NCBI GenBank assembly: GCA_028345065.1
Contig: JAOMCN010000006.1
Span: 9,941-73,940 of the forward strand
Reading direction: 5' to 3'
DNA length: 64,000 bases
Source: Rhodospirillales bacterium
GTDB lineage: Bacteria > Pseudomonadota > Alphaproteobacteria > Rhodospirillales > UBA2165
In this document: in pieces, positions 11,082 through 57,533 of the stretch
Numbering within the stretch: the first letter of the stretch is position 1
Layout: each line of letters begins with the position of its first letter
The notes under the pieces: generated by a model
Told to the model about the DNA's origin: nothing
Seen by the model: the letters and a program-made list of their open reading frames with translations, nothing else
Databases searched by the model: none
Made by a program: the position numbers and the translations under genes

Positions 11082-11101
11082 CTTACCTTCTTCAGAGTGG
11101 A

Positions 11102-11240: not shown

Positions 11241-11335
11241 ATCGACTGACAACAACAAAAATATTTTGGGATCGAAAATCGAAAATTGGCATGAGCTTAA
11301 TTTGGATGGCTGTTATAGTGCTCTAATATTATCGG

Positions 11336-13314: not shown

Positions 13315-13426
13315 TAGAATACTCCTTCAGTTTAAAAACGCGTTTTAGACGGACGATTTCAATTTATCTTATGATTATTGTAAAAAATAAATAAGCTAAC
13401 GATACATTTAGAAAAATATTTCTTCA

Positions 13427-13444
13427 TTGACAATATTATGTCAA
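13427..13444. promoter_or_regulatory. Inverted repeat TTGACA-N6-TGTCAA in the divergent prx / lrp spacer
   Basis: Read directly: ttgacaatattatgtcaa. It has 6-bp perfect arms and lies in an AT-rich 200-bp divergent promoter region. Any function as an operator or promoter element is a guess. Confidence 0.25.
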
Positions 13445-13514
13445 AAAATAGAATGATTTGTTCTATTTATTTACTTATTTAAGTAATTTTTTTCTAATAT
13501 AGGGAATCAATTGG

Positions 13515-16840: not shown

Positions 16841-16844
16841 TAAG

Positions 16845-27241: not shown

Positions 27242-29381
27242 TGCATCTCTGGAAAAGAGCCCCAATGTCGACGACTGGCTTACCATCTCATCGGATGATG
27301 TAATCACCATTCGCACTGGAAAGGTGGACATTGGACAGCGTATTTCAACGTCCTTAGCCATTGTCGCCGCCGAAGAATTAGATGTCGACTATGACCGCAT
27401 CCATGTCGAACGCACGCGGACTGGGGAAGCGCCCGATGAAGGTGTGACGGCGGGTAGCAATTCTATGGAACAGTCAGCCACCGCCATTCGTGCTGCCAGC
27501 GCTACCGCACGCCATCACATGCTCCTGCTTGCAGCAAAGGCGTTGGAAGTAGACGTGAATACTCTGGAAGTCTCTGATGGGCTAATCACATCCCGCGACA
27601 TTAATCGCTCGATTACCTATAGCGACTTAATGGAAGGGAAAGATTTTGGCATTGCTGTGGACACTAATGCCAAACTCAAGGTTCCCAGCGAACAGAATGT
27701 AGTGGGTACCAAAGTGGTGCCGAAAGGCTTAAACGAAATTGTAACCGGGAAATTTCAATACGTTCACGATATGACGATGGATGGCATGATGCATGCACGG
27801 GTGGTGCGTCCGCCGCACTATCATGCCCGCTTAAAGAACCTGGATAAAAACCAACTCAAAAAATTGCAGTTGGAAGGTGTAAAAACTATTATCGATGGTA
27901 GTTTTATTGCCGTTGCTCATGAAGATGAATATCGAGCAATTAAGGCTCGTGATCGGATGGCAGCAGCCGTCACCTGGGACCTAGCTGATGGCCTTCTGGT
28001 TAATGATCTTTATGAAGCCTTATTATCAAACCCGCGTGTTAGCCACCGGCTTGTCGATGGCGTACCAGATGATGAACCCATACCTAAACTGGGAAATCCG
28101 CCTGACGAAGCCACGAAAACAATAAGTGCACGATATGAAAAACCCTATATCATGCATGCTTCAGTGGCACCTTCAGCGGCATTCGCACTCGCGGAAGCCA
28201 CAAAAATCAAAATTTGGTGTCATAGCCAAGGGGTTTATATCTTAAGGGATAGTGCTGCCGAAGCGCTTGGAATGAACTCCGAAGATCTTGTCATTACACA
28301 CGTACCGGGACCAGGTTGTTACGGACATAACGGCGCGGATGACGTCGCCTTTGATGCCGCCCTGGTCGCACGTGCATTACCAGAAATACCCGTACTTCTG
28401 AAATGGACACGCGAAGACGAACACGCCTGGGAGCCTTATGGCTCAGCCATGGTTATGGAACTTCGGGGCAGTTTGAACAAACAAGGTGACGTCATCGAGT
28501 GGTCGCATGATACTTACAGTGACACCCACAGCATGCGACCCTTTCCCGGACCAAACGGCCTCGGTCCTGGTCGACTAATTGGTAGCCGCTATATGGATCC
28601 ATCAATTCCACCGACGCCTTCGCAACCGACGGGCGGCTCACACAATGGTAAGTTTCGTAATCAAGATCCACTCTACACTTTTCCGAACCGAAGGATCGTT
28701 AAGCACCTCGTAAAAGACCTACCACTCCGCTGTTCATCACTACGCGCGCTCGGAGGCTACGCAAATATCTTCGCTCTTGAGTCTTTTATGGACGAACTTT
28801 CGTTAGAAGCGAGCATGGATGCCGTTGATTACCGCCTGATGCACCTCTCAGATGTAAGGGCTAAAAATGTAATTGAAGCTGCTGCAGAGGCTTTTGGATG
28901 GCCTGGAAAAAATTCCGAGGGCGTCGGATGTGGCCTCGCATTTGGACAATACAAGAACATCAAGACTTATGCCGCCGTCGCCATTGAAGTAGAGGTTACC
29001 GATAACGCCGAAATTAAACTCCGGCGCGCCGTCATCGCCGCGGACGCGGGCCACGTGATTGATCCTGCGGGGCTCATCGTACAACTTGAGGGTGGTGTTA
29101 TTCAGGCAGCAAGTTGGACACTCTACGAGCAGGTCTTATACGACCGTGGGGGCATCACCAGCCGTGATTGGGATAGCTACCCAATTCTACGTTTTGGAAA
29201 CGTACCATCGATTAACACAATCCTTATGGAACGTCCCGGCGAACCTTTTTTGGGGGCTGGAGAAGCAACCACAGGACCAACTGCCGCAGCAATAGCCAAC
29301 GCCGTTTACCGTGCTACTGGGCTCAGACTTAGGCGACTTCCTCTAACGCCTGAAGCTGTAAAGTTAGCGGCATTAAACTAA
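27234..29381 (+). CDS. Molybdopterin-binding large subunit, aldehyde oxidase/xanthine dehydrogenase family (IorB-like)
   Basis: 715 aa: GKVDIGQRISTSLAIVAAEEL...GSNSMEQSATAIR...GAGEATTGPTAAAIANAV. The TTG start overlaps the small-subunit stop by 8 nt. No Tat signal is visible. Confidence 0.8.
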   Translation: MTSASLEKSPNVDDWLTISSDDVITIRTGKVDIGQRISTSLAIVAAEELDVDYDRIHVERTRTGEAPDEGVTAGSNSMEQSATAIRAASATARHHMLLLAAKALEVDVNTLEVSDGLITSRDINRSITYSDLMEGKDFGIAVDTNAKLKVPSEQNVVGTKVVPKGLNEIVTGKFQYVHDMTMDGMMHARVVRPPHYHARLKNLDKNQLKKLQLEGVKTIIDGSFIAVAHEDEYRAIKARDRMAAAVTWDLADGLLVNDLYEALLSNPRVSHRLVDGVPDDEPIPKLGNPPDEATKTISARYEKPYIMHASVAPSAAFALAEATKIKIWCHSQGVYILRDSAAEALGMNSEDLVITHVPGPGCYGHNGADDVAFDAALVARALPEIPVLLKWTREDEHAWEPYGSAMVMELRGSLNKQGDVIEWSHDTYSDTHSMRPFPGPNGLGPGRLIGSRYMDPSIPPTPSQPTGGSHNGKFRNQDPLYTFPNRRIVKHLVKDLPLRCSSLRALGGYANIFALESFMDELSLEASMDAVDYRLMHLSDVRAKNVIEAAAEAFGWPGKNSEGVGCGLAFGQYKNIKTYAAVAIEVEVTDNAEIKLRRAVIAADAGHVIDPAGLIVQLEGGVIQAASWTLYEQVLYDRGGITSRDWDSYPILRFGNVPSINTILMERPGEPFLGAGEATTGPTAAAIANAVYRATGLRLRRLPLTPEAVKLAALN

Positions 29382-29387
29382 ACCAAC

Positions 29388-30305
29388 ATGATGACGAACA
29401 TTAAACTCGCTGGATATCAGCCACATAGTTCACTCCTTAGCCAGACTTTGAAACTGTTCTCTGACTTTATCCAAAAACAGTTGCCTGACAACGTAAGCAT
29501 CAAAATTACAAATAACATTATGGACCTTGGGTATGCTCCTGGAGCGATGCCCGATGCCATCGCATCTGGCAATTTTGATATAGGATATATAGCTACAAGC
29601 TATTTTGCCAAACCTATTCCTCAACTTTATATCTTTGACCTTCCGTTTTTATTTAGAAATAGGATCGAGGCTTATCGATTGGTAGATGGACCATTTACCA
29701 GCATGGTCGCCTCGCAGTTTGAAAAAAAAACCGATCTGAAACTATTGAACATCTGGGAATATGGCTACCGGCATTTTACGAATGACAGTCATCCCATCCG
29801 TAGACCGACAGATTGCCATAACTTACCTATCAGAACTCTATTGAATGAGCTTCATCCTATAATGTTTAAATCTCTGGGGTTCAAACCCGTAACCCTGCAG
29901 GTAAATGAGTTCCTAAAGCAACTCAAAGCCGGCAGAAAGATTGCCCAAGAGAATGCCCTAACCAATTATTACAACTTTGGCATTCATCAATTCCATCATC
30001 ATATAACTTTATCCGGCCACCTCCTCGGAATGGCAATATTGATATGTAAGAGGGAACTATTTGAAAATTGGCCTAGGGAGGTCCAGGAGGTAGTAACTGC
30101 GGCCGCGTTCCACGCAACACTAAAACAACGAGAGATAGCTGTAATTGAGGAAGAGGTTGTTCTTAAGAAATTTTCACCAGACAACTATAAAATTCATAAA
30201 TTGACGGATGAGGAAAAATCTTTATTCGAGGACGCCTTAATTACCCCGACAAAACCCTTTCGTGAAAAAATTGGAAAATCTACACTAGCAATGTTGGGAG
30301 CGTAA
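29388..30305 (+). CDS. DctP-type TRAP solute-binding protein homologue without a signal peptide
   Basis: IKLAGYQPHSS...ASGNFDIGYIA...IFDLPFLFRN...LKLLNIWEYGYRHFTN...LPIRT...AQENALTNYYNFGIHQ follows the DctP family pattern. The ORF starts 6 nt after the Mo-subunit stop, so there is no room for a leader peptide. Confidence 0.65.
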   Translation: MMTNIKLAGYQPHSSLLSQTLKLFSDFIQKQLPDNVSIKITNNIMDLGYAPGAMPDAIASGNFDIGYIATSYFAKPIPQLYIFDLPFLFRNRIEAYRLVDGPFTSMVASQFEKKTDLKLLNIWEYGYRHFTNDSHPIRRPTDCHNLPIRTLLNELHPIMFKSLGFKPVTLQVNEFLKQLKAGRKIAQENALTNYYNFGIHQFHHHITLSGHLLGMAILICKRELFENWPREVQEVVTAAAFHATLKQREIAVIEEEVVLKKFSPDNYKIHKLTDEEKSLFEDALITPTKPFREKIGKSTLAMLGA

Positions 30306-33324: not shown

Positions 33325-33474
33325 AAAGATTAGAGCACGATATGGTGGCTGAGCGTTTGGAACTCACCTCCTGAGATCATACATAGACACCAAAGTTACT
33401 GTTTTTCTAATAACCGATAGAACTTTCTTTAAAGAAAAGGCTGTAACACCTACGAAACCAAGTTGGAAAATAAA

Positions 33475-34797
33475 ATGTTAGCGCGTGTTCATAAACTATT
33501 TTCTACTACCATTATTTCAGGGTTACTGGTTTGGGTGAACTCAGCACCAGTAGCTGCAGAATCTGTTGCTGAGTTCTATAAAGGTGGGTCAATCGTAATT
33601 CATATGGGATTTCCGGGGGGCGGATTCTTGGAATCAGCCAAGCTCGTTGGTAAACATATGCAAAAGCATATTCCAGGAAATCCTAAAATTATTTTTCAAG
33701 GTCGGCCAGGAAGACTCGGCACGGCAGTACTTGACTTCCTGGCATCACCTTGGGCACTTAAAGATGGTACGCATTTAGCAATGCCTGGTTCTCTTGGTCC
33801 TTGGATGCCACTCCAGACAAGTGTTCCAGTCAAGTACGATCCACTCCAAATGAACTACATAGGTAACGTTAATTCAGCTGGAGACACATTTCTGTTCGTC
33901 CGCCAAGATGTTAATATTAGAACCCTTTCAGACCTAGTTTCTAAACCACTTAAGGTTAGCAACTCTCGAGGTGCGTACAGGAATTTTGTTGCTGCGCTCA
34001 ATAACATCCTTGGAACCAAGATCACCTATGTTGGAGATTATCCGTCGCATCGTGATGCTTTTGCGGCAATGTTACGGGGAGAAACAGAAGGTGTAGCTGG
34101 AGCGGGCGTAACAGCTGGAGCAGAACACAGGCGCTATTTCCCATCTCTTCTCAAAGACCTAGAAGTTATACCGGTACTCCGATATACAGCCACCACAAAA
34201 AGTGTAGAATATCCGGGCGCCATTCTTGCCGGCATGGCGGGAACCACAGAGACTCAGAAACAGGCACTGGAGATTACCTTTGCCAGCCAGGTTTTGGATC
34301 GGCCTTTGATGGGGCCCCCAGGTATTCCCACACCTCGTTTAAAGGCGTTGCAGATCGCTTTCATGAAGGCGATGCAAGATCCAGAACTAATTGTTGAAGC
34401 CCAAGAAAAAAAGTTGGGAATAAAAGACCCTATGAGCGGACCCAACATGAAAAAATATGTGAAAACAATTTATGCCCTCCCTGAAACGGCAAAGGCCATG
34501 ACCAGAAAGGCACTAGCAGATAAGAGCTTTCTCCAACCTGTTCGCTATACGACTTTCAACGCCGAACTGTTTAAAGTCACGAAGGACGGTCGTAGCCTGA
34601 ATGCCAATTTGACGTTTAAAGACACAAAGAAAACCATCATCGTTCGGTTGGATGCGAGAACAACAAGCGTTTCAGCCTACGGTAACCAAATCAAACCGCC
34701 GCCCCTCAAAGCCGGCTCTTTAGAACCAGGTATGAAGTGTAATGTCTCCTGGACTGGCCCCAAGACAACTGCCAGTGCCTTGGTATGCAAAAAATAA
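33475..34797 (+). CDS. Periplasmic Bug/TctC-like solute-binding protein with a roughly 110-aa C-terminal extension
   Basis: Signal-like MLARVHKLFSTTIISGLLVWVNSAPVAA, then IVIHMGFPGGGFLESAKLVGKHMQKHIPGNPKIIFQGRPGRLGT...DGTHL, which follows the Bug pattern. I chose the ATG at 33475 over the TTG at 33463. Confidence 0.5.
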   Translation: MLARVHKLFSTTIISGLLVWVNSAPVAAESVAEFYKGGSIVIHMGFPGGGFLESAKLVGKHMQKHIPGNPKIIFQGRPGRLGTAVLDFLASPWALKDGTHLAMPGSLGPWMPLQTSVPVKYDPLQMNYIGNVNSAGDTFLFVRQDVNIRTLSDLVSKPLKVSNSRGAYRNFVAALNNILGTKITYVGDYPSHRDAFAAMLRGETEGVAGAGVTAGAEHRRYFPSLLKDLEVIPVLRYTATTKSVEYPGAILAGMAGTTETQKQALEITFASQVLDRPLMGPPGIPTPRLKALQIAFMKAMQDPELIVEAQEKKLGIKDPMSGPNMKKYVKTIYALPETAKAMTRKALADKSFLQPVRYTTFNAELFKVTKDGRSLNANLTFKDTKKTIIVRLDARTTSVSAYGNQIKPPPLKAGSLEPGMKCNVSWTGPKTTASALVCKK

Positions 34798-35233: not shown

Positions 35234-35821
35234 TCAAACCGGCGGCTTCCAGTTTTTCAAGCCAATACTATCTGCTACTCTTTGACGCCATTGGTTAATA
35301 GGCTCTGCTGTCGGATATTGATGAACTATCTCCCTTGTCCGCTCAATGATTTCTTCATCTGTAAGATTGAAATCAAGCTCATCACGGAACGGCTGACCAA
35401 CATACCAATCAGTATCAACATATAGCTCGACACGGTTGCCTTCTGGATCTTTAAAATAAACACTCCATGCATTGCCATGGGTTAGAGAATACATCTCACT
35501 AATATCGGGCTCAATTTTGAGAACATCCCAAAAAGTTCGAAGGTCAGCCAATGATTCTACGAGGAACGAGATCTGGTTAATCACGTTGAATGGAATACCA
35601 TCGGGTTTTCCACCAATCAGGACCAATTGATGATGGACCATCGGATCACGGGTTAGAAAAATCAGTTCAGCCTTCAGATCGTGGCCATCAATTCGTCCTT
35701 CATCTGAGCGATGCATTTTAAAAAGTCGCTGGTAAAAATCCCCCATTCTTTCCAAATCTTTGACCCAAAATCCAAAATGAGTGAAACGAACGGTAGGAAT
35801 AGAATTTGAATTGTCTGTCAA
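35234..35821 (-). CDS. VOC (glyoxalase/extradiol dioxygenase) family protein
   Basis: FTHFGFWVKDLERMGDFY...HHQLVLI...THGNAWSVYFKDPEGNRVELY. Confidence 0.7.
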   Translation of the reverse strand: MTDNSNSIPTVRFTHFGFWVKDLERMGDFYQRLFKMHRSDEGRIDGHDLKAELIFLTRDPMVHHQLVLIGGKPDGIPFNVINQISFLVESLADLRTFWDVLKIEPDISEMYSLTHGNAWSVYFKDPEGNRVELYVDTDWYVGQPFRDELDFNLTDEEIIERTREIVHQYPTAEPINQWRQRVADSIGLKNWKPPV

Positions 35822-37050: not shown

Positions 37051-38232
37051 GTGAGACAATCGAGACTTCCAACCGGCGGATTGAACGTCCTACAGACAAT
37101 TAGGCAAAAGCGGGTGGCACTAGAATCACTAGGTCGTAAGCTGCTTGACCTCTCCATCGGGGAACCAAAGGGTCCAGCTCTATTTAGTGCCAGACATGCT
37201 GCCAGTAGTGCCGTGATGAGCGATGATGAAGTTATGCACGCCTATCAATATAATGGAAGTCCAGCGGTACCAAAATTTTCAGAGAAATTTATCGCGGCCC
37301 ATGTAAAACGGCCTCTGCCGGAGGAAGATGTTGATTACCTTCCGATTTCGGGGATCAAACCGATCCTCGGCCTACTTCCACTATCATGTGGTTGTTCTAC
37401 CCAAAAGTTGACAGTCGCGACGACCACAAATCCTGGTTATCCAATTCCCGCAGATTGGTGTGCAATGCATCCCCTAGTTAACCACTACGCGCTTCCATTA
37501 ACGATTCAAAATAAATTCCGTTTTTCAAAGGAGAATATAGAACCGTCTACCGATCTCATTCTATTGAATTATCCCCACAATCCTTCCGGACAAGTTGCAA
37601 CAAAGCCATGGCTGAGAGAGCTTTGTGAGTATAGTGAAGCACATGATATTCGCCTCTTTAACGATGCAGCATATTTTGCACTGAGCCACACCGAAGAAAG
37701 CACTGCGTTAGCAGACGTGGCAAATGACTACCCTGCTCTCTCCTGGTCAGAAGCCTTCACCGCTGCCAAATTAATCGGTAATGGGACCGGTTGGCATGTA
37801 GGCGCCATGGTAGGTTCACCCGATTTTATAGCAGATATCAAAGAAATTAAGGGCAAAACCGATACCGGTTTCGTCCCCCCCATGGCAGTGGGAGCTCTCG
37901 AAGCTTTACAAAGAGATGCCCTAGGTATCTCTCAAGTTAAAGACAAATACCAAGAGCGTCTCAACCTTTTGGTCAATCTACTAAGTCGTTGCGGAATGCG
38001 ATCCGCATTGAAGCCGGCTGCTGGTTTTTTTTCTCTTTGGGAAGCACCCACAGAAGCCTTTGGTGAAAGAATAGAGAGCGCCGAAGAATTCAATTTCAAA
38101 ATGATTGACGAGGTTGGTGTTGCCGGGGTTCATTTCCCTGGCTTTCTTCGTTACGCAGTTTGTGCCGACATTACTGCTATGATGCCAGATCTAGAAACGG
38201 CCTTCCGGCAAGCAGACGTAAAATACAGATAA
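37051..38232 (+). CDS. Class I/II PLP aminotransferase
   Basis: LLDLSIGEPKGP...LILLNYPHNPSGQV...FNDAAY...AFTAAKLIGNGTGWHVGAM. GTG start. Confidence 0.75.
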   Translation: MRQSRLPTGGLNVLQTIRQKRVALESLGRKLLDLSIGEPKGPALFSARHAASSAVMSDDEVMHAYQYNGSPAVPKFSEKFIAAHVKRPLPEEDVDYLPISGIKPILGLLPLSCGCSTQKLTVATTTNPGYPIPADWCAMHPLVNHYALPLTIQNKFRFSKENIEPSTDLILLNYPHNPSGQVATKPWLRELCEYSEAHDIRLFNDAAYFALSHTEESTALADVANDYPALSWSEAFTAAKLIGNGTGWHVGAMVGSPDFIADIKEIKGKTDTGFVPPMAVGALEALQRDALGISQVKDKYQERLNLLVNLLSRCGMRSALKPAAGFFSLWEAPTEAFGERIESAEEFNFKMIDEVGVAGVHFPGFLRYAVCADITAMMPDLETAFRQADVKYR

Positions 38233-38272: not shown

Positions 38273-39517
38273 TTACGATACAGTCACAGGAAGAAGAGCT
38301 AATCCCCTAAACCGGGCTCTTCCATGAAAACGTTTTTTGCCATTTGGGCGCAAATTTGGAAACCGTTTAACAAATTTTCCTATTGCGGTATGGCCTTCTA
38401 TTCGGCCAAGCGTGTTCCCCATACAAATATGCCTACCCATACCAAAAGCTATTTGAGGATTTGGCTTGCGACCGATATTCACGGTTTCAGGATCTTCGAA
38501 AATCTCGGGATCGCGATTTGCCGCACCAACACACGTGTGTATGAATGAACCGGCGGGGATTGTTTTCCGATTATCTTCTGGCCCAAATACTACGTCCGCC
38601 GTTGCCTTTCTGTTTCCAATCTGAAGAGGGCTTTGAAAGCGGAGAAACTCCTCAACCGCCGTCTTGATAAGGTCAGGGTTCTCCCGCAAGCGTTGAAGTT
38701 GATCCGGAAATTCAAGTAAAGTACCAATACCGTTACTAACGAGGCTTGCAGTCGTTTCATGCCCGGCGTTTAATAGGAATATACAATTTTGCACCAACTC
38801 AACCGGACTAAGTTTGCGACCATCTACTTCCCCAAAAATTAGAGAGACTAAAACCTCACCCATTTCTGCACCATGGGGAGTTTCTCGACGTTTAGCGATC
38901 AATTCTTCCAATAACTCCCCAAATTCAATTACAGCCTCATGCCCAGCCTTAAGCTTTTCGGGAGAAACAATTGGATCAAGTGCACCAAGAATTAAAGTCG
39001 AATAGTGATGCATCTTGCTCCGATACTGCTCCGGAACGCCAAGCATGTCTGCAATGATTTCGGTGGGCAGAGCCAAACCATAGTCATGAACTACATCAAA
39101 TTCCTTTAACTCTTTAAGACGATCAAGTAATCGCTCAACAATACCCTCTATAACCGGGTCGAGCTCATCCATTTTTCTTGGTGTAAACGCTTCCGACATA
39201 AGCTTACGAACGCGAGCGTGGTACGGGTCGTCATTAAACACCAAGCTAGTCGTGTGATGCAGATATAAAGGCCCATTGCCGAATTTTGGCTTGAAGTCTA
39301 CCCGCTTATCCGAGCTCATTGCCGGATCTCTAAATGCCTTAACGACATCCTCATACCGTGTCAGAAAATAGGTGCCGTCAGGATTTAGATGCACGGGATC
39401 ATGTTCCCTCAATAATTTATACGTCGGAAACGGATCGTCGAGAAATTCCTGGTCAATACTCTGAATATCAAACGCCAGGGCCTGTTCGTGATCCGATGGA
39501 GGTACACTCATTTTCAT
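38273..39517 (-). CDS. Cytochrome P450 monooxygenase
   Basis: LLNAGHETTA (I-helix), EEFLRF (ExxR), FGMGRHICMGNTLG (heme Cys ligand loop). Confidence 0.9.
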   Translation of the reverse strand: MKMSVPPSDHEQALAFDIQSIDQEFLDDPFPTYKLLREHDPVHLNPDGTYFLTRYEDVVKAFRDPAMSSDKRVDFKPKFGNGPLYLHHTTSLVFNDDPYHARVRKLMSEAFTPRKMDELDPVIEGIVERLLDRLKELKEFDVVHDYGLALPTEIIADMLGVPEQYRSKMHHYSTLILGALDPIVSPEKLKAGHEAVIEFGELLEELIAKRRETPHGAEMGEVLVSLIFGEVDGRKLSPVELVQNCIFLLNAGHETTASLVSNGIGTLLEFPDQLQRLRENPDLIKTAVEEFLRFQSPLQIGNRKATADVVFGPEDNRKTIPAGSFIHTCVGAANRDPEIFEDPETVNIGRKPNPQIAFGMGRHICMGNTLGRIEGHTAIGKFVKRFPNLRPNGKKRFHGRARFRGLALLPVTVS

Positions 39518-39575
39518 AACCGATAATGGATATTGAAATACTTACTTTAAAACCTTAACCAAACGATATCTTTAA

Positions 39576-42500
39576 TTACTTCGCGGGTTCTAATTCTCTC
39601 ATTCTTTCCCCTTTATTGTTCTTTGCATTTTCTGAATTCTTTACCAATTCAGCTTCACCAGTCCACAATTCCACCTGAACAAGCGCAGCACTACTACCCA
39701 TGGAGTGAGCTTGTTTGATCTGGCTGCGCTTCGGCGTTAGCTGGTTGAGACAGCCCCCCCGGTCAACTGAATTTCCGGGCTCACCGATAGGCTCATAGGT
39801 TGCACATGATTCATAGCCATGCACCAAGCCACGACACAATCTTTCGGTTGGAAATGCCGCACAAATAACGGCACCGCGGCCATTATAAACTTTAACCAAA
39901 TCTCTCATTTTTATATTACGATCAACCGCATCTTCGGCATTTATTCTAAGTGTCCAGTAATAGTGACCATCAACCATCATTCGATGATCAACGATGTCAT
40001 TAATAAATGCATCTTTACCGTCACCCTGACTATGGTAGCTAAACCGCGCGTGCGGTGTAATCATTTGCAGTGGGTATTTTTTTGTAAGCTCAGTCGCCCC
40101 GGGACCTTCCCATGAGGGGGTATATTTAACTATAGGGGGACGTTCTGGGTCATTGGCGTCAAATCGTTTTAAGCTATTACATTCGAATTCAATCTTTCCA
40201 GACTGCGTCTGCAGACCTTTAAGAAATTCTTCGGTATAATCTGCAGGTAAGGGGTGAGGTTCAGGCACATCTTTTTTGCGGCCTTCGGCAAACCACCTAA
40301 AAGATACAGGCTGTCTAAGCTCCTCTCTTAAAGGAGGAACAACAAAGTAACCTTTACGGATAAACTTATTCCAAGAAATATGTTTTGGTAAATCAGAAGC
40401 ATTAAATTGTCGTTTTACCCAATCTAACTCGCTCATACCTTCAGAAAACAATAGACCCAAACCTAACCTTTGAGCTAATTCTAAAAATATCTGATAGTCC
40501 GATTTCGACTCCCCTAAGGGTTCAATGCATTTGTGCTGAAAGACGATAACTCGGTGATTTAGCTGGTTTTGACCGTGATGAGTATACCCCCCTATGCCGG
40601 CCCACTCACTTATGTCCGGACGCTCCAGATTAGTACACGCTGGCAATATTATATCCGCAAATTTTGCATCACCTTCGAACCAGATTGATTGATTGACGAC
40701 AAATTCTAAATTGTCCGTTCGATACATTTTTACGTAACGATTTGTGTCACTCATAGTACCAAACATCGAGCCACCGTATTTATAGAGCATCTTTACTGGT
40801 GCATGACCCCGTTTTGGATATACAATTTTGTTAAACTGCCCTTCGATGGTTTTCCCGTCCCAGGCATATCCTTCAGCCTTACCCTCAAGAATTGCCTCAG
40901 GGAGTTGAAGACGCGGAATTTTCTGCGAACTGGTGTTCACGGTAGGTAATTGTGGCATGCGTTGATAAAGAGCCACCGACAATGCCGTCCCTTGAAGATC
41001 CCCAGACATCCCGCCGTCCGCATATCCCGGAAAATAGAAGTTGAGATCTATCGGTGTGGCCCGCTGTAGATTACCGAGGTTTATTCCCGGCTTACCAATA
41101 CCTTGCATAGCCATCAAACAGATCATCGTCCGAGCCCATTGGATGCCAGTAGAATTACGACACGCACCCCCATACCCATTTCCAGCTCCACCGGCCGATA
41201 AATATACTTTTTTTCTTCCCCATTCACGTGCTAATGCTCTAACATCTTTAGCTGGCACACCAGTCTCTACTTCTTGCCAATCAGGGGTTTTAGGGATCCC
41301 ATCCTCTACTCCCAGAATATAGTCTTTCCAGACCTCGAAGCCGACCGTTCGATCAGAGACATAATCCTTGTCATAGAGGTTCTCAGTGATCCAAACATAA
41401 GCGATAGACAGTGCTAAAGCCGGGTCAGTTGTGGGTTTCGGAGCCAACCACTTTCCACCCAACATTTGCGCAGTATCGTTATAATGTGGATCAATATGGA
41501 CAAACTTAATATCAAGTTGTTTAAGCCATTGGCGACGGATTGATCCCTCTTGTGACGCATAATTACCGCTTGTTGATTCCGGGTTAGAAGACCAAAAAAC
41601 TACCATTTCACAGTGTTTTAGAAGATCCTCGACTGTTCCGTAATTCTCTGACATACCAACCCTCATGGAATGCCCCCAATGGTGTAATCCACCCCAATAC
41701 CAACCCTCCCAACTGTCGGGATTATGGTGTACTTCGGTGTGGCCAATCAAATTCATAAAACGGAAGTTTGCCGAGAGGTAATAACCGATATTACCCCAAG
41801 TATGATGGGAACCATGGCTTGAAGCGATAGCCCCTGTCCCATAGTCACGCTTTGTGCGCTGTATTTCTCCAGAGACAATATCGAGTGCCTCATCCCAACT
41901 AATTCGTTCATAATCAGAAATGCCGCGATTGTTGCAATTGCGTTTTCCATTGGGGTCAAAATCAACTCGCTTCATCGGATATAAAATACGATCAGGTGAA
42001 TAGATTGCTGATTTCCAGTTCTGACCATGCGGCGATAGTGTTGTTTTTCTGGGTGGCGTAAATTTTTTCCCGCGGGCTTTGACAGTCCAAGTACCTGGAT
42101 CGTCGTCATCAAATTCTATGGTTGTAGTACGAACGATTTTTCCATTTTTTACGTAAACGAAAATTGGCCCCCCATTGGTCATGCTCGTATAACGCTTCGA
42201 GCCGTCCGGTGCCAAAACGCCATATTTCCAATGAAGGTTTTGTGTCAGCATTATTGTTTGAGCAAACCAGTAGGTAAGTTCATCAGGGCCTGTCATTGTC
42301 AGATTAAATTCTTTTTGAGCATCAATTTGATTTTGATAGTCAACCGGCGGCATCAGTAGTTGAGCTGCAATTTCAGCAGATTTGAATGACATACAAATTT
42401 CTGGTGACTGATGAATAACTGCTTGGGAAGAAACTTTACCGTCATGAAATGAAAAAAAACGGCCGGAGGAATCGTCAGCAATTTTGATCTGAGCAACAAA

Positions 42501-42596
42501 ATTTTTCTCTTTGAGGCGCGCTCTAAAAACAGGATTTCGCCAAGCCGTATACCTCAACAGCCAACTCAACCCCAAGAGAATTAACGAAAATTTCAT
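39576..42596 (-). CDS. DMSO-reductase-family molybdoenzyme resembling the large subunit of pyrogallol-phloroglucinol transhydroxylase (AthL-like), with an extra N-terminal domain of about 130 aa
   Basis: From [17 protein letters not shown] onward the protein tracks my memory of AthL: ...KFTPPRKT...[12 protein letters not shown]...[15 protein letters not shown]...[11 protein letters not shown]...[12 protein letters not shown]...VVFWSSNPE...[13 protein letters not shown]...DRGGCLN. The N-terminus is [19 protein letters not shown] plus an SCP2-like segment. Confidence 0.75.
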
Positions 42597-42611
42597 ATGA
42601 CGCCTAATTTC

Positions 42612-43916
42612 TTATGCCGCCGGGACAATAACGGATCGGCATTCACCGAAGCCGATACGAGCCTTACCATCACCATCGCACCACGCCCGCATGACAACCT
42701 CATCACCATCCTCAAGGAAGGTCCTCTCTTCATCACCCGGAAATAAGATGGTTTCCTTACCTCCTTTACAGGCTTCAAGAATACTGCCGTATGTATCTGG
42801 TGTTGTCCCTGAGATGGTGCCGCTTCCATAAAGGTCACCCGGATTGAGATCACATCCATTGCTGGAATGGTGTGCCAACATTTGAAAGACACTCCAATAC
42901 ATGCCCTTAAAGTTTGGAGCGCCAATGACATGAGGCAAATCACCATTTTTCCTCATTTTGTCAGTAAGAACCGCAACTTGAATGTTTATATCGAGCCCGC
43001 CGGAACCTTCGTGGGACTTGGTGTGGAGATATGGTAATGGTGCCGGATCACCTTTTGGGCGTTTAAATATTGCTGATCTGTAGGGCGCCAAGGCTTCCAA
43101 AGTTACAATCCATGGAGAAATGGTTGAAGAAAAATTTTTAGCCATAAATGGACCCAGAGGTTGGTATTCCCAAGTCTGGATATCTCTCGCTGACCAATCA
43201 TTCAGTATACAAAGACCGAAAACGTGATCTTCCGCTTCTTCCAACGGAATAGCGGAACCAAGCATGTTCCCCGGACCTACAAATACCCCCAATTCTGTCT
43301 CATAATCCAGTCTTCGACAGGCATCAAAATTTGGTGTTTCAGCATCAGGGCCTTTTAACTGGCCTGCTGGCCGTTTAGTCGGCGTACCACTGACACGGAT
43401 AGAGGATGAACGTCCGTGATAGGCAATAGGTACATACTTGTAATTCGGCAACAATGGATTATCAGGTCTAAACATCCGCCCTACGTTCGTTGCATGGTTT
43501 ATGGAAGAATAAAAATCTGTAAAATCCCCAATTCGGGCCGGTACTGTCATTTCGGCGTCGGCCATAGGTACTAAACATGTACGACCCTCTTTTTCATTAC
43601 CTCCTGACCTCAACAGTTTGGAAAGTTGATCGCGCAAACTGACCCAATGCTCGCGACCCAATCCCATTAATGTATTTAGAGTTGATTCCTTACATGCCGC
43701 CGCCGCGTCACCCTTTAAATATCCGGCATCAAATGCCTTACCAACGTCCAGTATTTGGTTCCCGATCGCGACCCCGCCACGGTACTCTCCACTTGAACCT
43801 GCGTTACGAAAAACCCCCATGGGTAAATTTTGGATAGGAAAGTCACTGCCAATTTCGTTTGCCGAAGGTACCCAACTAGTGAGTTTAGGATCATGCGTAT
43901 CATTAAGTGAGGTCAT
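42612..43916 (-). CDS. fahA: Fumarylacetoacetase
   Basis: SWVPSANEIGSDFPIQNLPMGVF...IGDFTDFYSS...YHGRSSSI...ETELGVFVG; 434 aa. Confidence 0.9.
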   Translation of the reverse strand: MTSLNDTHDPKLTSWVPSANEIGSDFPIQNLPMGVFRNAGSSGEYRGGVAIGNQILDVGKAFDAGYLKGDAAAACKESTLNTLMGLGREHWVSLRDQLSKLLRSGGNEKEGRTCLVPMADAEMTVPARIGDFTDFYSSINHATNVGRMFRPDNPLLPNYKYVPIAYHGRSSSIRVSGTPTKRPAGQLKGPDAETPNFDACRRLDYETELGVFVGPGNMLGSAIPLEEAEDHVFGLCILNDWSARDIQTWEYQPLGPFMAKNFSSTISPWIVTLEALAPYRSAIFKRPKGDPAPLPYLHTKSHEGSGGLDINIQVAVLTDKMRKNGDLPHVIGAPNFKGMYWSVFQMLAHHSSNGCDLNPGDLYGSGTISGTTPDTYGSILEACKGGKETILFPGDEERTFLEDGDEVVMRAWCDGDGKARIGFGECRSVIVPAA

Positions 43917-45224
43917 TTATAAATTTCCATTGAAGTGTTTTTTAAGTCCTTGCCAGCACTCAGAATAATCACTTTGAAGTGCCGGAGTTTCTAAAGCAAA
44001 TTTTGTCGGCCTGTAGAGATATCTTGTCTCAAACATGAAAGCCATCGAACCGTCGAGATATATTGGTTCCTGCTCAGCTTGACTAGCCGCTTCAAAAACG
44101 TCGGCGTCATTGCCATGAGGCGACATACAATTGTGGAGACTGCTACCACCAGGAACAAAGCCTTCCTTACGACCGTCATACTGACCCTTTATAAGCCCCA
44201 TATACTCGCTCATGATATTCCGATGATACCATGGTGGCCGGTAAGTATCTTTAGCCACGACCCATCGAGGTGGAAATATTACAAAGTCTACATTGGCAAC
44301 CCCCTCGGTATCACTTGGTGAAGTCAACACTGTGTAAATACTTGGGTCAATATGATCAAAGCTCACGGTACTAATTACGTTGAAATTGGCTAAGTCATAT
44401 TTATAGGGCGTATAATTGCCATGCCATGCGACAACGTCCAACGGCGAATGTCCAATATCAGCGTCCCACAGGTTCCCGCCAAACTTTGTAGTCAGTTTGA
44501 ATTGCCCTTCTCGTTCCTCGAAGCTCGCGACAGGCGCAAGAAAATCTCTAGGATTAGCTAAACCATTAGAACCAATAGTCCCCAAATTGGGTAGACGCAT
44601 AGGGACACCATAATTTTCCAGTACATATCCTCGCGAAGACCCGTCCGGTAATTCGGCACGATATTTGACGCCACGTGGTATTACAGCAATTTCATTAGGT
44701 CCAATTTCAACTATACCCATCTCTGTCAGCAATTTTATTCGACCTTGCTGCGGTACAAAAAGCATCTCCCCATCTGCATTGTAAAAATAGCGGTTATCCA
44801 TAGATGAATTGGCAGTATAAATGTGGACGGCCAAGCCACTTATACCAACCTCACCAGCCCCCATAAGCGTCACCAGGCCTTCAATGAGGTCTGTAGGTTT
44901 TGTCGGAATAGGCAGTGGATCCCATCGCATTTGATTAGGGGTCGCCGGCATCTCGTCGAATGGTGCACTCCTCAGCAGACCATTAGAAACCTGCTGGAAT
45001 GGTAGATGTTTGACAGATGGACGCATTCGGTAGAACCAAGTTCTCAGATTTTGATCCCGGGGTGCCGTAAACGCGGTACCACTCAAGTGCTCCGCATAGA
45101 GGCCATAAGCAACCTTTTGCGGCGAGTTTTGTCCTTTAGGAAGGGCGCCAGGTAGAGCCTCGCTCGCAAATTCGTTTCCAAATCCGCTTTGGTAATCAGC
45201 CGTGACCAACAGGGTCGCATCCAT
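43917..45224 (-). CDS. hmgA: Homogentisate 1,2-dioxygenase
   Basis: [46 protein letters not shown]...[14 protein letters not shown]...HNCMSPHG. Its stop abuts the fahA start. Confidence 0.92.
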
Positions 45225-45256
45225 GATTTCACCCTCCCATACTGAGCTAAAAAAAT

Positions 45257-45278
45257 AATAGTTTCATTTGTAACTATT
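45257..45278. promoter_or_regulatory. Inverted repeat AATAGTT-N8-AACTATT in the 72-bp hmgA / marR divergent spacer (candidate MarR operator)
   Basis: Read directly from aatagtttcatttgtaactatt. MarR-family operators are typically palindromes of this size in their own divergent promoters. Confidence 0.35.
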
Positions 45279-45296
45279 TACAATTATTATTTTCCC

Positions 45297-45758
45297 ATGA
45301 CCAAAATTTCGTCACCCGAAGAGAATACTTTACTGCTGCACGATTTTCTCCCATATCGTCTCGCCGTGCTCGCCAAAGTCGTAGGTATATCCCTATCAAA
45401 AATTTACAGGAAAAAATTTGGCATCACCAATCAGCAGTGGCGTGTAATATTTGCTCTCGCTCGCCAAGCCAATTGTTCAGCATCTCACATTGTTCATCAC
45501 GCCGCCCTCGACAAGGTACAAGTCAGCAGAGCAGTAGCTGGCCTGATTGAGAAGAAATTGCTTGAACGCAGTGCAGACAATATCGACCGAAGAAACTCAA
45601 TACTCAATTTGACAATCGAGGGATGGAAAGTCTACGACCAGATTGCGCCTGAAGCTGTGGCTTTCGAAGCCAGCCTTAAAGGTTCCTTAGATGAACGGGA
45701 AGTTGCAGAACTTGATACGCTCTTATCAAAGCTAATGGACAAGGCTACAAATCTTTAG
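45297..45758 (+). CDS. MarR family transcriptional regulator
   Basis: 153 aa with a winged-HTH pattern: ITNQQWRVIFALAR..NCSASHIVHHAALDKVQVSRAVAGLIEKKLLER..D..DRR. Confidence 0.85.
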   Translation: MTKISSPEENTLLLHDFLPYRLAVLAKVVGISLSKIYRKKFGITNQQWRVIFALARQANCSASHIVHHAALDKVQVSRAVAGLIEKKLLERSADNIDRRNSILNLTIEGWKVYDQIAPEAVAFEASLKGSLDEREVAELDTLLSKLMDKATNL

Positions 45759-45764
45759 CCATGC

Positions 45765-46664
45765 TTAGACTATCAATAAGACCATAATACCGCCAACAAT
45801 GAGGACAGTACCTAAAATTTCATACGAGGTTATTTTTTCTCTAAAGATCAACGTCGAAGTCAAAAAGGTAAAAATCAACTCAACCTGTCCCACGGCCCTG
45901 ACGTAAGCAGCATTTTGTAATGTCATGGCTGTGAACCAGCCCACTGAACCTAACATGCTAGCTAAACCCACAAGGGCGCCTTTGCCTTTATTTTGCCAAA
46001 CCTTCGTCAACTCACCTTTCTCACAATAATAAAGATAGGCCGTCAACACCACGGTTTGGATGATGAGCGCCGCCAATAATGTTGCCGAAGCGGCCAAAAG
46101 GGCACTTTCGCCACCAAGCGAGAGAGAGGCTCCCCGATAGGAGACGGCAGAAATACCCAAAAACACACCATTGGCTAGGCCCATCAGGGCCCCCTTATTA
46201 GTCCAGGACAATAGAAACTCACGTGGGTTAACAGTCATTTTAGCAAGTGACAGAAAACACACCCCGATGAAACTGATAAGAATAGCAACGAAAGTGATAC
46301 CCGTTACTGCTTCTCCCAGTATAAGTATTGTGAATATGGCGGTTTGGAAGGTTTCTGTTTTTGAGTATGCAGTTCCAACAGCAAAACTTTTTAAGGCAAA
46401 GGAACGTAATAAAAACCACATCGCCAACACTTGCGCGACACCTCCCAAGGCAGCATAACCTACAAATACAATTCCCCAATCCAGGGGTTGAGTGTCATAT
46501 GAGCGAAGTAAAATCCAGTAGAGAGCTGCTAGTGGGAGCCCAAATACGAAGCGTGTATAGGCAGCACCAGATGTCGATAAGACACTGTTAATCGACTTCT
46601 GAAGAGAATTTCGCAGGTTCTGCAAGAAGGCAGCAGCGAGGGAGAATAGAAGCCATGCTTCCAC
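45765..46664 (-). CDS. DMT superfamily (EamA-like) membrane transporter
   Basis: 299 aa, about 10 hydrophobic helices, two-fold internal pattern. Confidence 0.6.
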   Translation of the reverse strand: MEAWLLFSLAAAFLQNLRNSLQKSINSVLSTSGAAYTRFVFGLPLAALYWILLRSYDTQPLDWGIVFVGYAALGGVAQVLAMWFLLRSFALKSFAVGTAYSKTETFQTAIFTILILGEAVTGITFVAILISFIGVCFLSLAKMTVNPREFLLSWTNKGALMGLANGVFLGISAVSYRGASLSLGGESALLAASATLLAALIIQTVVLTAYLYYCEKGELTKVWQNKGKGALVGLASMLGSVGWFTAMTLQNAAYVRAVGQVELIFTFLTSTLIFREKITSYEILGTVLIVGGIMVLLIV

Positions 46665-54405: not shown

Positions 54406-55749
54406 TCAAACATCGTTGATTGTCGCCGACGCGAAGGTTCTAGTTTCTACAGTCGTGGCAGCTAGAGGGCGGCGCAGCGTACCTGGCACAATTCCCGCCT
54501 TGAGAGAACTCATCACGCCAACCGCTTCCCAGTAGTTTTCTACAACGTGCAACTGTCCTTTCGCCCAGGGAAGAGCCTCAAGGTCATTTTGCATAAGGTT
54601 ATCATTCTCACGCACTGCAATGACAGGTATACCCTGTTCAAGAGCCGCCAACGTGGGTAGCCCAACACACTTATCGGGAATAACTAAACAAGAAATATCA
54701 GAAGCCGTAAAAATTCCAGCCTCGCCCAAAGCCTCGGGGTGGCTGACTATGCGTGGGCTACGATGTAGACCTTTCAACATACACTGCAGGAAGGTAAAGG
54801 ATACAGCCTCAGCCGCTAACCGCGGCTCAACCAATCCCAAATCAAAATCTGCCACTGCCTGACTTTCAAGCATTGGTGAGTGTGCTGTTGGCAGACCATA
54901 AAGCAGCGATAACGAGTGGGTTAACATTGCTTCGACACCGCCCCACGGGTTCACCATTTTGCCATCGCGGCGAAAATACTCTTTATGGTATTCATCGGGG
55001 ACGTCAACAACAGATGCGATGGCTACAGCATCAAACGCACCATCATGCTCATCCAACACCGTGCAGACGCGATATAAACCCTCGACCTCCCCCGCTGCCC
55101 TGCCGGAGTCCGTGAAACACGAGGTCATGCGAAGCGGTGGGTCGAGCTTCACAACCTTAACGCAATCAAATCCATAGGTCGCGCGAGCAGCACTTACTGC
55201 ATTGACCGTATCATTAACAAACACTTCAGTTTCATGTGCATCTATGAGTACTAGTACTCTATTTGCCCGGACGCGTTGCAACCCAGCCGTCCCCATTAAT
55301 AATTGGGTAATTGAACTACCCTCAACATAAAGAGCATTCTCTGGCATTTCATTGAGATCAGAGGCGTTTACGACGTTCGGATGGGTAACCAACGTATCAC
55401 AAGCTGTTGCAATCACCCTTGCCGCCGGCGTCGCATCGCCGGCATGGCCTCCAATCTCAGCACCAATTCCCGTCGGCACCAAAAAGACAGCATTAAACGC
55501 ATCCGTCCTTTCTACCTTGCGGGGCACAAAGCTAAAAATGGAATTAAGCCCTCTTGTCTTTGCGATTTCCATGCCTTCGAGCGTGCCTAGTTCGCAATTA
55601 TACTCAACACCAGTTACACCGGTAATCACGAAACGTATTGGAAGCACCGTATCACCGAGCGTTACTTCTACTGTCTTTTTGATATGAGAAATCAGGCTGT
55701 GATGACTTGGCGCGACAGGTATCCTTACTTGCCTCTCGATCAGCTTCAC
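54406..55749 (-). CDS. Conserved protein of unknown function, DUF3326-like
   Basis: FLVPTGIGAEIGGHAGDATPAARVIA and MVNPWGGVEAML match what I recall of DUF3326. I prefer the GTG at 55749 (GAGGGG lies 7 nt upstream), 8 nt after the stop of the AdoMetDC-like gene. The ATG at 55890 would overlap that gene by 131 nt. Confidence 0.45.
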   Translation of the reverse strand: MKLIERQVRIPVAPSHHSLISHIKKTVEVTLGDTVLPIRFVITGVTGVEYNCELGTLEGMEIAKTRGLNSIFSFVPRKVERTDAFNAVFLVPTGIGAEIGGHAGDATPAARVIATACDTLVTHPNVVNASDLNEMPENALYVEGSSITQLLMGTAGLQRVRANRVLVLIDAHETEVFVNDTVNAVSAARATYGFDCVKVVKLDPPLRMTSCFTDSGRAAGEVEGLYRVCTVLDEHDGAFDAVAIASVVDVPDEYHKEYFRRDGKMVNPWGGVEAMLTHSLSLLYGLPTAHSPMLESQAVADFDLGLVEPRLAAEAVSFTFLQCMLKGLHRSPRIVSHPEALGEAGIFTASDISCLVIPDKCVGLPTLAALEQGIPVIAVRENDNLMQNDLEALPWAKGQLHVVENYWEAVGVMSSLKAGIVPGTLRRPLAATTVETRTFASATINDV

Positions 55750-55759
55750 TTGCGTCCCC

Positions 55760-56134
55760 TCAAATTCGTTCAATAAACCTGGCAGAGCAGTCGGTGGCAC
55801 CGAACCAATCGACCGTAAACTTTTCTGCGATATTGGGGTCAAAATCCTTGCAAGAAAATATATTAATGTAAATGGCTCCCATCTGGTCAAGCGTATGAAT
55901 TACGATAGAACTCGTCAAAATAAACTGAACGGCTGAAGTACCCTGAGTATGGGCAGACGTTTGTCTTTCTTTCACAGGAACATCAAAATCGTCCCAAAAG
56001 TGTAACGCCTCACGTTTCATATCGATGAGTTTGCAGAGGCTTTCAAAATACCTACTAATACTTTTTCGCGTAAATGTACCAGGGTCGCAACCATGCAAAT
56101 CTAATATAAGTTCAGCCCCAAATTTTTCCATCAC
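55760..56134 (-). CDS. S-adenosylmethionine decarboxylase-like (pyruvoyl enzyme fold, PF02675-type) protein
   Basis: GAELILDLHGCD...GTSAVQFILTSSIVIHTLDQMGAIYINIFSCKDFDP parallels the short bacterial SpeD pattern [32 protein letters not shown]. Here Thr-Ser replaces the usual Glu-Ser processing site. RBS GGAGAGG. Confidence 0.7.
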   Translation of the reverse strand: MMEKFGAELILDLHGCDPGTFTRKSISRYFESLCKLIDMKREALHFWDDFDVPVKERQTSAHTQGTSAVQFILTSSIVIHTLDQMGAIYINIFSCKDFDPNIAEKFTVDWFGATDCSARFIERI

Positions 56135-56344
56135 CTCTCCAACTCTTCTGTAGGGCCATCACTTTGAACCGATCCAATAAAGGCTTTGGTGTAGTCTATG
56201 TTTCAACCACTTTAAGGTGATGCCAAACCCAAGTGGACTGGCACAATCAACACTTGTCTGTGACATATGTTGAGTTTTGGGATATTCGCCAACTATAATA
56301 TTTAGCGAATTTTCACTCGAGAATCGCATCCGCTTTTCTTTGAG

Positions 56345-57505: not shown

Positions 57506-57533
57506 CTAAGGTATCAAGTCCCGCCGAATTACG

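Follow-up and report, generated by a model that had tools for sequence, protein, structure and literature searches.

A predicted homogentisate operon carrying an AthL-like molybdenum enzyme and a cytochrome P450 in a marine alphaproteobacterial lineage

The 64-kb stretch of DNA analyzed here (the window) comes from a marine, oxic-ocean Rhodospirillales-type alphaproteobacterium and contains four minus-strand genes in series, coding for a homogentisate 1,2-dioxygenase (hmgA), a fumarylacetoacetase (fahA), a molybdenum (Mo) enzyme and a cytochrome P450, with a divergently transcribed gene for a MarR-family regulator upstream of hmgA (Table 1). The genes are closely spaced, with gaps of 0 nt between hmgA and fahA, 15 nt between fahA and the Mo gene, and 58 nt between the Mo and P450 genes, and the marR-hmgA spacer is 72 nt long; the operon gaps of relatives are 5-21 nt. 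The coordinates, strands, gaps and spacer length recorded in a first-pass annotation of this DNA agree exactly with the open reading frame (ORF) list. The products of hmgA and fahA would provide an ordinary lower pathway, cleaving the ring of homogentisate and then hydrolyzing the product to fumarate and acetoacetate. As that annotation had also reported, neither an hppD-like two-domain vicinal oxygen chelate (VOC) protein nor a glutathione S-transferase (GST)/maiA-like protein is found by Pfam among the window ORFs of at least 150 aa, and close to the P450 gene these ORFs encode neither a ferredoxin nor a reductase. The window and one related locus (L179) lie in a common gatCAB and ribonucleotide-reductase neighborhood, which indicates that the cluster is chromosomal and vertically inherited, and not a recent island.

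Table 1. Features of the homogentisate cluster and its immediate flank in the window.
Feature	Position	Strand	Basis
Cytochrome P450, 414 aa, heme domain only, class-I-type	38273-39517	-	PF00067
Mo enzyme, 1006 aa	39576-42596	-	Pfam AhtL-like_1st + Molybdopterin + Molydop_binding
AthL-like bis-molybdopterin guanine dinucleotide (bis-MGD) catalytic core, aa 135-981	39654-42194	-	PDB 4v4c_A match
N-terminal SCP2-fold domain of Mo enzyme, about aa 1-122	42231-42596	-	AlphaFold2 + Foldseek
fahA, fumarylacetoacetase	42612-43916	-	TIGR01266 equivalog, 539 bits vs cut-off 375; abuts hmgA stop codon
hmgA, homogentisate 1,2-dioxygenase	43917-45224	-	TIGR01015 equivalog, 668 bits vs cut-off 511; HgmA_N + HgmA_C
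Sigma-70-like promoter TTGTAA-17-TATTAT towards hmgA	45255-45283	-	Consensus match only; overlaps palindrome
Palindromic operator candidate TAGTTACA-AA-TGAAACTA, 18 nt	45259-45276		Pattern scan
MarR-family regulator, divergent from hmgA	45297-45758	+	Pfam MarR_2/MarR (PF12802, PF01047)
EamA/DMT-family transporter gene, tail to tail with marR	45765-46664	-	Pfam EamA

A terminator or an independent promoter between fahA and the Mo gene had been named in the first-pass annotation as a finding that would refute its proposed feeder module. On the minus strand between positions 37900 and 46000 there are no terminator-like sites, whether at that junction or between the Mo and P450 genes, and promoter-like matches are fewer than in shuffled sequence; a consensus scan places two of them in the marR-hmgA spacer and only one within the series, a 9/12 match that lies inside the Mo gene. 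A single operon of hmgA, fahA, and the Mo and P450 genes, under the control of MarR, appears to be the best explanation of the arrangement.

The best structure match of the Mo enzyme is 4v4c_A, the pyrogallol hydroxytransferase large subunit (AthL, also PgtL) of Pelobacter acidigallici (E = 8.5e-303), to which it is 55% identical over the shared columns of an 865-residue core. PF00384, PF01568 and the AthL-type first domain PF21423 all score above their gathering cut-offs, and NCBI gives close relatives the name pyrogallol hydroxytransferase large subunit; an exact-protein look-up of the window protein itself returned no record. The earlier label of a transhydroxylase-like protein of the dimethyl sulfoxide (DMSO)-reductase family is borne out by the AthL match and by PF21423, and we conclude on sequence grounds that the Mo enzyme is a true AthL homologue, within the AthL/PgtL-RhL branch of the DMSO-reductase (MopB) superfamily. 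That it should instead be an S- or N-oxide reductase unrelated to aromatics, of the trimethylamine N-oxide (TMAO), DMSO or biotin-sulfoxide reductase type, is extremely unlikely, even though JGI calls homologues 'trimethylamine-N-oxide reductase (cytochrome c)', the top NCBIfam match is bisC_fam (338 bits, well under its cut-off of 1018), and the protein would, like such enzymes, be monomeric and free of iron-sulfur (Fe-S) clusters. TMAO and DMSO reductases match it only at about E = 1e-71 to 1e-51 (best TMAO reductase 3.6e-71), the AthL-specific first domain and the NCBI name of the close relatives speak against such an assignment, and there is no twin-arginine translocation (Tat) signal motif, the N-terminus being part of a different fold.

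Residues H264, D294, S295, Y525, Y272, W296 and Y671 of the Mo enzyme align with H144, D174, S175, Y404, Y152, W176 and Y560 of AthL. Messerschmidt et al. 2004 reportedly assign Ser175 of AthL as the Mo ligand and His144, Asp174 and Tyr404 as catalytic residues; these residue numbers agree with the PDB sequence, and the four positions are invariant in 173 relatives. A literature search for papers naming AthL active-site residues found none. Coordination of Mo by Ser is described for the RhL/PgtL branch (PMC10100899).

The fold at the N-terminus was missed by the first-pass annotation and was found with AlphaFold2 and Foldseek. As modeled (mean predicted local distance difference test score, pLDDT, of 82.7), the domain is an alpha/beta SCP2 (sterol carrier protein 2) fold, and such folds form a hydrophobic ligand tunnel. 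The best Foldseek match is UbiJ-SCP2 (6h6o, E = 8e-6), from a ubiquinone-synthesis protein, followed by the substrate-recruiting SCP2 domains of alkylsulfatases and then by sterol carrier proteins, and the top 39 matches are all SCP2 proteins or domains, with template-modeling (TM) scores of 0.56-0.67. Sequence searches hardly register the domain: PF02036 gives E = 0.02-0.05 in two relatives and no match for the window protein, and Pfam applied to the N-terminal 140 residues returns only sub-threshold SCP2 and Alkyl_sulf_C hints. The sampled long-form relatives retain the domain; Pelobacter AthL, which aligns from query residue 135 onward, lacks it.

Relatives of the Mo enzyme are numerous, with more than 5,000 protein clusters at E <= 0.001 (more distant Mo enzymes included); the best 120 clusters are all of the same length and domain set, and the ten closest, which represent the window's clade, comprise roughly 600 member sequences. 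A scan of a genome collection (GTDB representative genomes) gave no Mo relative above 71% identity, showing that the window's clade is missing from these genomes, and close relatives were taken from a metagenome scan and exact-protein look-ups. We fetched 179 loci and tallied homologues by tblastn. In a neighbor-joining tree rooted on AthL (all trees were neighbor-joining, without bootstrap support) the window enzyme belongs to a monophyletic clade of 16 loci and 12 distinct lineages, with Mo enzymes 74-100% identical. A further 160 loci, with Mo enzymes of 62-73% identity, lie outside this clade; 151 of them are informative and nine are cut off at a contig end.

The two sets differ sharply in what follows the Mo gene. 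Outside the clade, a gene for a BthL-like beta subunit (Fer4_11 plus a CarboxypepD_reg-like domain) follows in 148 of the 151 informative loci, starting within 300 nt in 134, and only three loci with enough downstream DNA lack it (L091, L143 and L074); homologues of hmgA, fahA or the P450 are found in 0 of the 160. Within the clade a P450 homologue is present in 16 of 16 loci and a beta homologue in none, nor does any beta homologue occur in the 64-kb window (tblastn, E <= 1e-3). The window Mo enzyme is thus not encoded as an adjacent heterodimer with an Fe-S beta subunit of the BthL/RhS type, which carries three [4Fe-4S] clusters. The absence of the beta gene and the presence of a P450 in its position are the most unusual features of the locus, and the first-pass annotation overlooked them. 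In eight of the twelve lineages the P450 gene immediately follows the Mo gene, and in two it is found past an opposite-strand UbiD/VdcC-like gene (the L009 and L095 types; L009/L010 and L095/L096); L172 is the single lineage in which it is adjacent but divergent, and in the twelfth (L098) it starts just past the Mo gene and runs off the contig end. Upstream of the Mo gene, hmgA and fahA are present wherever clade loci have upstream DNA, except in L172, so that hmgA-fahA-Mo occurs with the P450 in 11 of 12 distinct lineages (Mo enzymes 77-97% identical). Conservation of the hmgA-fahA-Mo-P450 order, which had been put forward as a check, extends to every relative with a Mo enzyme at least 77% identical.

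In the divergent lineage L172 the Mo enzyme is 74% and the P450 56% identical to those of the window, hmgA is absent, and an extradiol-dioxygenase-like gene follows, whose best match is HpaD at a sub-threshold score. Its P450 is basal in the P450 tree though it is encoded next to a clade Mo gene. From this arrangement the Mo and P450 pair behaves as a portable unit able to combine with more than one kind of ring-cleavage gene. Near the pair are also a T4_deiodinase (iodothyronine-deiodinase-like) gene and an Rdx-family gene (L172 8579-8962 and 9774-9926), which hint at halogenated-phenol metabolism. The intervening opposite-strand gene of the other two unusual lineages (L009 13079-14404, L095 5991-7346, L096 13026-14333) is of the UbiD family, with the hydroxyarylic-acid decarboxylase VdcC as best match, and may widen the substrate range to ring-carboxylated phenolics; we considered a UbiD decarboxylase as a core component of the cluster and rejected it, since it is confined to one sub-lineage.

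Comparison of the window with four relatives shows synonymous sites to be saturated (pS 0.78-0.93), and because dN/dS is not computable under such saturation we report pN and pS (nonsynonymous and synonymous divergence) instead. Values of pN are 0.11-0.15 for the Mo enzyme, 0.17-0.20 for the P450, 0.15-0.22 for hmgA and 0.24-0.30 for fahA, making the Mo gene the most constrained of the four. Low pN alongside saturated pS indicates that the gene order is held by selection and that all four genes are under purifying selection. Moreover, 6 of 348 family-conserved columns of the Mo enzyme are altered in the clade (4-6 columns), as against 0-19 in beta-containing control clades; the changes fall within the control range and give no sign of decay following loss of the beta gene, and no clade-specific substitutions rise above the control clades to mark a lost beta interface. 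With the presumed catalytic residues kept and the family columns barely altered, the Mo enzyme looks intact.

A palindrome confined to clade loci and overlapping the predicted promoter lends support to regulation by MarR, as proposed in the first-pass annotation. The inverted repeat with 7-bp arms reported earlier is real and does lie in the marR-hmgA spacer, but it is larger than stated, forming the 18-nt palindrome of Table 1; the candidate MarR target sequence can be written as TAGTTACAAATGAAACTA. The operator pattern occurs once in the window, where 0.01 matches would be expected, is exact in nine clade loci and occurs in 0 of 169 other loci, and L173 has the perfect palindrome TAGTTTCAATTGAAACTA. 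The spacer flanks of the palindrome are not conserved, and retention of the palindrome within a changing spacer constitutes a phylogenetic footprint of a candidate operator, whose overlap with the predicted promoter would fit repression by MarR. All clade loci that extend far enough upstream contain a MarR gene. The best NCBIfam match of the regulator is the hydroxyphenylacetate-responsive HpaR, below cut-off, and its best PDB match is 2fa5, with HpaR (7el2) matched too.

The P450 has a heme-thiolate motif FGMGRHICMG, an ExxR motif EEFLR and an I-helix acid-alcohol motif AGHETT, and scores 110 bits against PF00067. It consists of the P450 domain only, lacking the fused flavin mononucleotide (FMN)/2Fe-2S reductase domain of the CYP116B type, and its best PDB matches are BioI (3ejb), Vdh and CYP107-type enzymes. 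In the P450 tree the Mo-linked P450s cluster together, and members of the other subclades, at 57-67% identity to the window protein, have as neighbors either genes for a MaoC-type hydratase and an acyl-CoA ligase or housekeeping genes. These contexts suggest recruitment of the P450 from a family without an obvious specificity for aromatics, one that may originally act on acyl-thioester-type substrates. The closest relatives without a Mo link (65% identical; L175 7139-9224) start 1 nt past a MaoC/MFE-2-type hydratase gene, near an acyl-CoA ligase gene. No ferredoxin or ferredoxin-reductase gene adjoins the P450 gene in the clade loci with gene calls.

One reading of this gene arrangement is that the P450 replaces the Fe-S beta subunit as electron outlet, with two electrons from a water-dependent Mo hydroxylation passing to the P450 heme and there driving a second, O2-dependent hydroxylation, such that no NAD(P)H, ferredoxin or reductase would be needed. 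The placement of the P450 gene in the beta position in most lineages and the lack of adjoining redox-partner genes would both be accounted for, the electron count would agree (two released and two needed), and with constraint on the alpha subunit not relaxed, the beta-binding surface may still serve. We nonetheless consider it very unlikely. The opposite-strand gene between the two genes in L009/L010 and L095/L096, together with the divergent orientation in L172, implies that stoichiometric co-translation is not required, and the missing ferredoxin is uninformative, because P450 paralogues without a Mo link likewise have no adjacent redox partners. We know of no precedent for electron transfer from a bis-MGD enzyme to a P450.

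We propose instead, at about even confidence and from the sequence comparisons above, that the Mo enzyme and the P450 may form a conserved two-enzyme upper module that acts on a phenylacetate-type aromatic acid and feeds homogentisate to the lower pathway. The module would put in or move ring hydroxyls to yield homogentisate (2,5-dihydroxyphenylacetate). In the first step the P450, using O2 and electrons from a ferredoxin system encoded elsewhere, would add the first hydroxyl or make a polyhydroxylated co-substrate, and in the second the Mo enzyme, independently of O2, would hydroxylate the ring para to a phenolic OH already present, completing the hydroquinone pattern. We infer which compound is formed, what class of substrate enters, in what order the steps run and where the oxygen comes from, and favor this model because homogentisate is a para-dihydroxy compound cleaved by HmgA, a regiochemical fit that adds to the operon evidence. 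The chemistry has parallels, in that characterized relatives of the Mo enzyme convert pyrogallol to 1,2,3,5-tetrahydroxybenzene and resorcinol to hydroxyhydroquinone, introducing a para hydroxyl with no O2 (PMC10100899, PMC10990095), the RhL/PgtL family hydroxylates phenols (PMC10100899), bis-MGD Mo enzymes acting on dihydroxyphenylacetate are described (PMC7028382), and a bacterial P450, OhpA/CYP116B, makes homogentisate from 2-hydroxyphenylacetate as a 2-hydroxyphenylacetate 5-hydroxylase (PMC8449657, PMC11889516). In the literature we found no connection between AthL-type enzymes and either hmgA or a P450. The suggestion of an undescribed feeder module, made in the first-pass annotation, is thus partly sustained, by the operon, its synteny and its regulation, but it has to be narrowed, since OhpA is a known bacterial P450 feeder and only the Mo part and the type of P450 are undescribed.

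With no adjacent beta gene, the Mo enzyme would either carry out a redox-neutral hydroxyl transfer or pass its electrons to another partner, and the absence of beta fits redox-neutral transfer best. The enzyme might then be a true transhydroxylase, converting a 3,4-dihydroxyphenylacetate-type catechol to homogentisate with 2,4,5-trihydroxyphenylacetate as catalytic co-substrate, while the P450 serves only to prime the co-substrate. Such a reaction would parallel the use of pyrogallol and tetrahydroxybenzene in Pelobacter, and as no net electrons would be moved, loss of beta would cost nothing, in keeping with an otherwise unaltered alpha subunit that retains 55% identity to AthL and its presumed catalytic residues. 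The HpaD-like dioxygenase gene beside the pair in L172 likewise points to dihydroxyphenylacetate chemistry, and fungal PhacB hydroxylates 3,4-dihydroxyphenylacetate at C6 to give 2,4,5-trihydroxyphenylacetate. The analogy is imperfect, however, as on chemical reasoning the C4 hydroxyl to be removed is not para to another, unlike that in the Pelobacter reaction, and the pocket differs from that of the pyrogallol enzyme: Tyr replaces AthL R153 in the window protein and almost throughout the long-form family, and it also replaces AthL W354 throughout the window's clade (13/13), whereas other long-form relatives have His or Phe at that position. We regard a transhydroxylase of this kind as distinctly unlikely.

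Several observations weigh against the two-enzyme module acting on a phenylacetate-type acid. An hppD gene may lie elsewhere in the genome, in which case hmgA and fahA could serve tyrosine catabolism regardless of the Mo enzyme and P450; a beta gene may exist beyond the 64 kb searched; and it is not evident where the electrons of a net hydroxylation would go without beta. The SCP2 domain hints at a hydrophobic ligand and not a small soluble aromatic acid, while the acyl-CoA and housekeeping contexts of the P450 relatives, and the acyl-ACP-cleaving BioI as best PDB match, indicate that the P450 is not obviously an aromatic-ring hydroxylase. Finally, no family-wide substrate or pathway emerged from a tally of neighbors in the beta-containing loci, which are mixed (TctC, SDR, 2-hydroxyacid dehydrogenase, Amidohydro_2, enoyl-CoA hydratase, DoxX, LysR and small FAH-family hydrolases); greedy ORF picking in this tally gave antisense artefacts in high-GC loci.

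In another reading the genes are co-regulated from a shared promoter but separate in function, hmgA and fahA serving tyrosine or phenylalanine breakdown by way of an hppD elsewhere, and the Mo enzyme and P450 acting on another phenolic, a lipid-like substrate, or oxidized quinone by-products of homogentisate. The occurrence of the pair without hmgA-fahA in L172, the acyl-CoA contexts of the P450 relatives, the hydrophobic ligand suggested by the SCP2 domain, and the splitting of the Mo and P450 genes by a UbiD/VdcC-like gene in one sub-lineage could all be understood in this way. We judge it unlikely, because the four-gene linkage has been held over 11 lineages at saturated synonymous sites and unrelated genes rarely stay linked, and because the lack of hmgA and fahA in all 160 related Mo loci makes the association specific, with no family-wide tendency behind it.

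The proposed upper module, and the operon in which it lies, can be set beside several known systems. The window Mo enzyme shares with Pelobacter AthL its Pfam domain set, the Ser ligand to Mo and the presumed catalytic His, Asp and Tyr residues, and differs in the lack of an adjacent beta gene, the extra SCP2-fold domain and the two Tyr substitutions; its host is an oxic-ocean alphaproteobacterium and not a fermenting anaerobe, and its gene lies in a homogentisate operon with a P450. The resorcinol hydroxylase RhL/RhS of Azoarcus anaerobius, likened here by its description, belongs to the same Ser-coordinated RhL/PgtL branch (PMC10100899) and adds a hydroxyl from water para to a phenolic OH, giving a hydroquinone-type ring-cleavage substrate, which is the chemistry proposed for the window enzyme; unlike the latter, it pairs with a small Fe-S subunit, relies on an external electron acceptor and works under denitrifying conditions. 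OhpA of Cupriavidus pinatubonensis JMP134 and the fungal PhacA and PhacB are P450s that lead hydroxyphenylacetates into the homogentisate pathway (PMC8449657, PMC11889516). OhpA, however, is a self-sufficient FMN/2Fe-2S reductase fusion encoded in an operon with a transporter gene and without hmgA, whereas the window P450 is a CYP107/BioI-like heme domain paired with a Mo enzyme. The hmgABC operon of Pseudomonas putida resembles that of the window in the succession of hmgA and fahA (hmgB) and in having a dedicated repressor, but the window operon lacks maiA (hmgC) and has the Mo and P450 genes after fahA. The P. putida repressor is moreover of the IclR type, and the window regulator of the MarR type.

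The wider long-form family, whose AthL/BthL-like pairs with an SCP2-fold N-terminus occur in L003-L171 (for example L004 10001-13915 and L003 10001-13877), is spread through aerobic Alpha-, Beta- and Gammaproteobacteria and is also present in Gemmatimonas, Chloroflexia and Desulfobacteraceae metagenome-assembled genomes (MAGs), and its members share 62-73% identity across phyla. No long-form member appears to have been characterized. Examples from Magnetospirillum sp. SS-4, Xanthobacteraceae and SAR116 MAGs match the window enzyme in length, SCP2 domain and presumed catalytic residues at 62-73% identity, and differ from the window's clade in the beta gene directly downstream, in the lack of hmgA, fahA or a P450 nearby, and in the residue at AthL position 354. 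Two of the beta-less loci outside the clade (L091 569-3622 and L143 2492-5458) are neighbors close to the tree's base, and their downstream DNA, 10 kb and 2.2 kb long, contains neither a BthL-like gene nor a P450; as a second beta-less lineage the two loci indicate that the adjacent beta gene was probably lost more than once. In L074 (7448-8827) the Mo gene is followed not by beta but by a second, distant Mo-enzyme paralogue (25% identical), and L170 has two BthL-like beta genes in one locus (12949-13785 and 16770-17603).

Other genes lie close to the cluster. Homologues of the EamA transporter (56-63% identical) occupy an equivalent position in L001, L098, L173 and L179, and the transporter is a possible carrier of substrate or product. 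An aminotransferase gene at 37051-38232 was considered as a link to the tyrosine pathway and rejected, as it is conserved in no related locus. Small one-domain VOC/glyoxalase-fold proteins are encoded near the cluster in the window (35234-35821) and in L179 (14311-14817) and L009 (5570-5953), and the 195-aa window protein has its best match, below cut-off, in the C-terminal half of HpaD-type extradiol dioxygenases. They were rejected as a conserved fifth component because the 195-, 168-, 127- and 303-aa proteins are mutually non-homologous.

Elsewhere in the window, positions 3950-11258 contain an AprB/AprA-like adenosine 5'-phosphosulfate (APS)-reductase pair beside a calcineurin-like phosphoesterase gene and, on the opposite strand, genes for a DUF934 protein, an NIR_SIR sulfite reductase and a CysG sirohaem synthase, a block that looks like sulfur or sulfonate metabolism; a gene of the phosphoenolpyruvate (PEP)-mutase family lies upstream of it at 1872-2735. 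A xanthine-dehydrogenase-family Mo hydroxylase (26768-30305) has a 2Fe-2S small subunit and a MoCoBD large subunit, with no flavin adenine dinucleotide (FAD) subunit seen, and is followed by a solute-binding protein (DctP) of the tripartite ATP-independent periplasmic (TRAP) type; its presence shows that the Mo cofactor is used in at least two enzyme families. At 54406-58085, all on one strand, a DUF3326 gene lies about 450 nt from glutathionylspermidine-synthase-like and DUF1190 genes that are themselves 28 nt apart. Three ORFs of 262-444 aa (3118-3906, 19950-21014 and 33463-34797) match no Pfam family at E <= 1e-5.

To our knowledge, characterized members of the AthL/RhL branch number just two, both from anaerobic metabolism. 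Here an alphaproteobacterial lineage of the oxic ocean keeps an AthL-like enzyme under strong purifying selection, in a homogentisate operon, paired with a P450, fused to an SCP2 domain of the lipid- or quinone-binding type and without an Fe-S partner gene. If the P450 were the electron outlet of the Mo enzyme, the pair would represent a P450 redox partnership of a kind not known before and would couple anaerobic-type and aerobic-type hydroxylation in a new way. Should the module indeed yield homogentisate, it would constitute the first entry into a classical aerobic ring-cleavage pathway that depends on molybdenum and, in the sea, a new sink for dissolved organic matter of the phenylacetate type or derived from polyphenols, and it would provide a functional foothold on a very large uncharacterized family.

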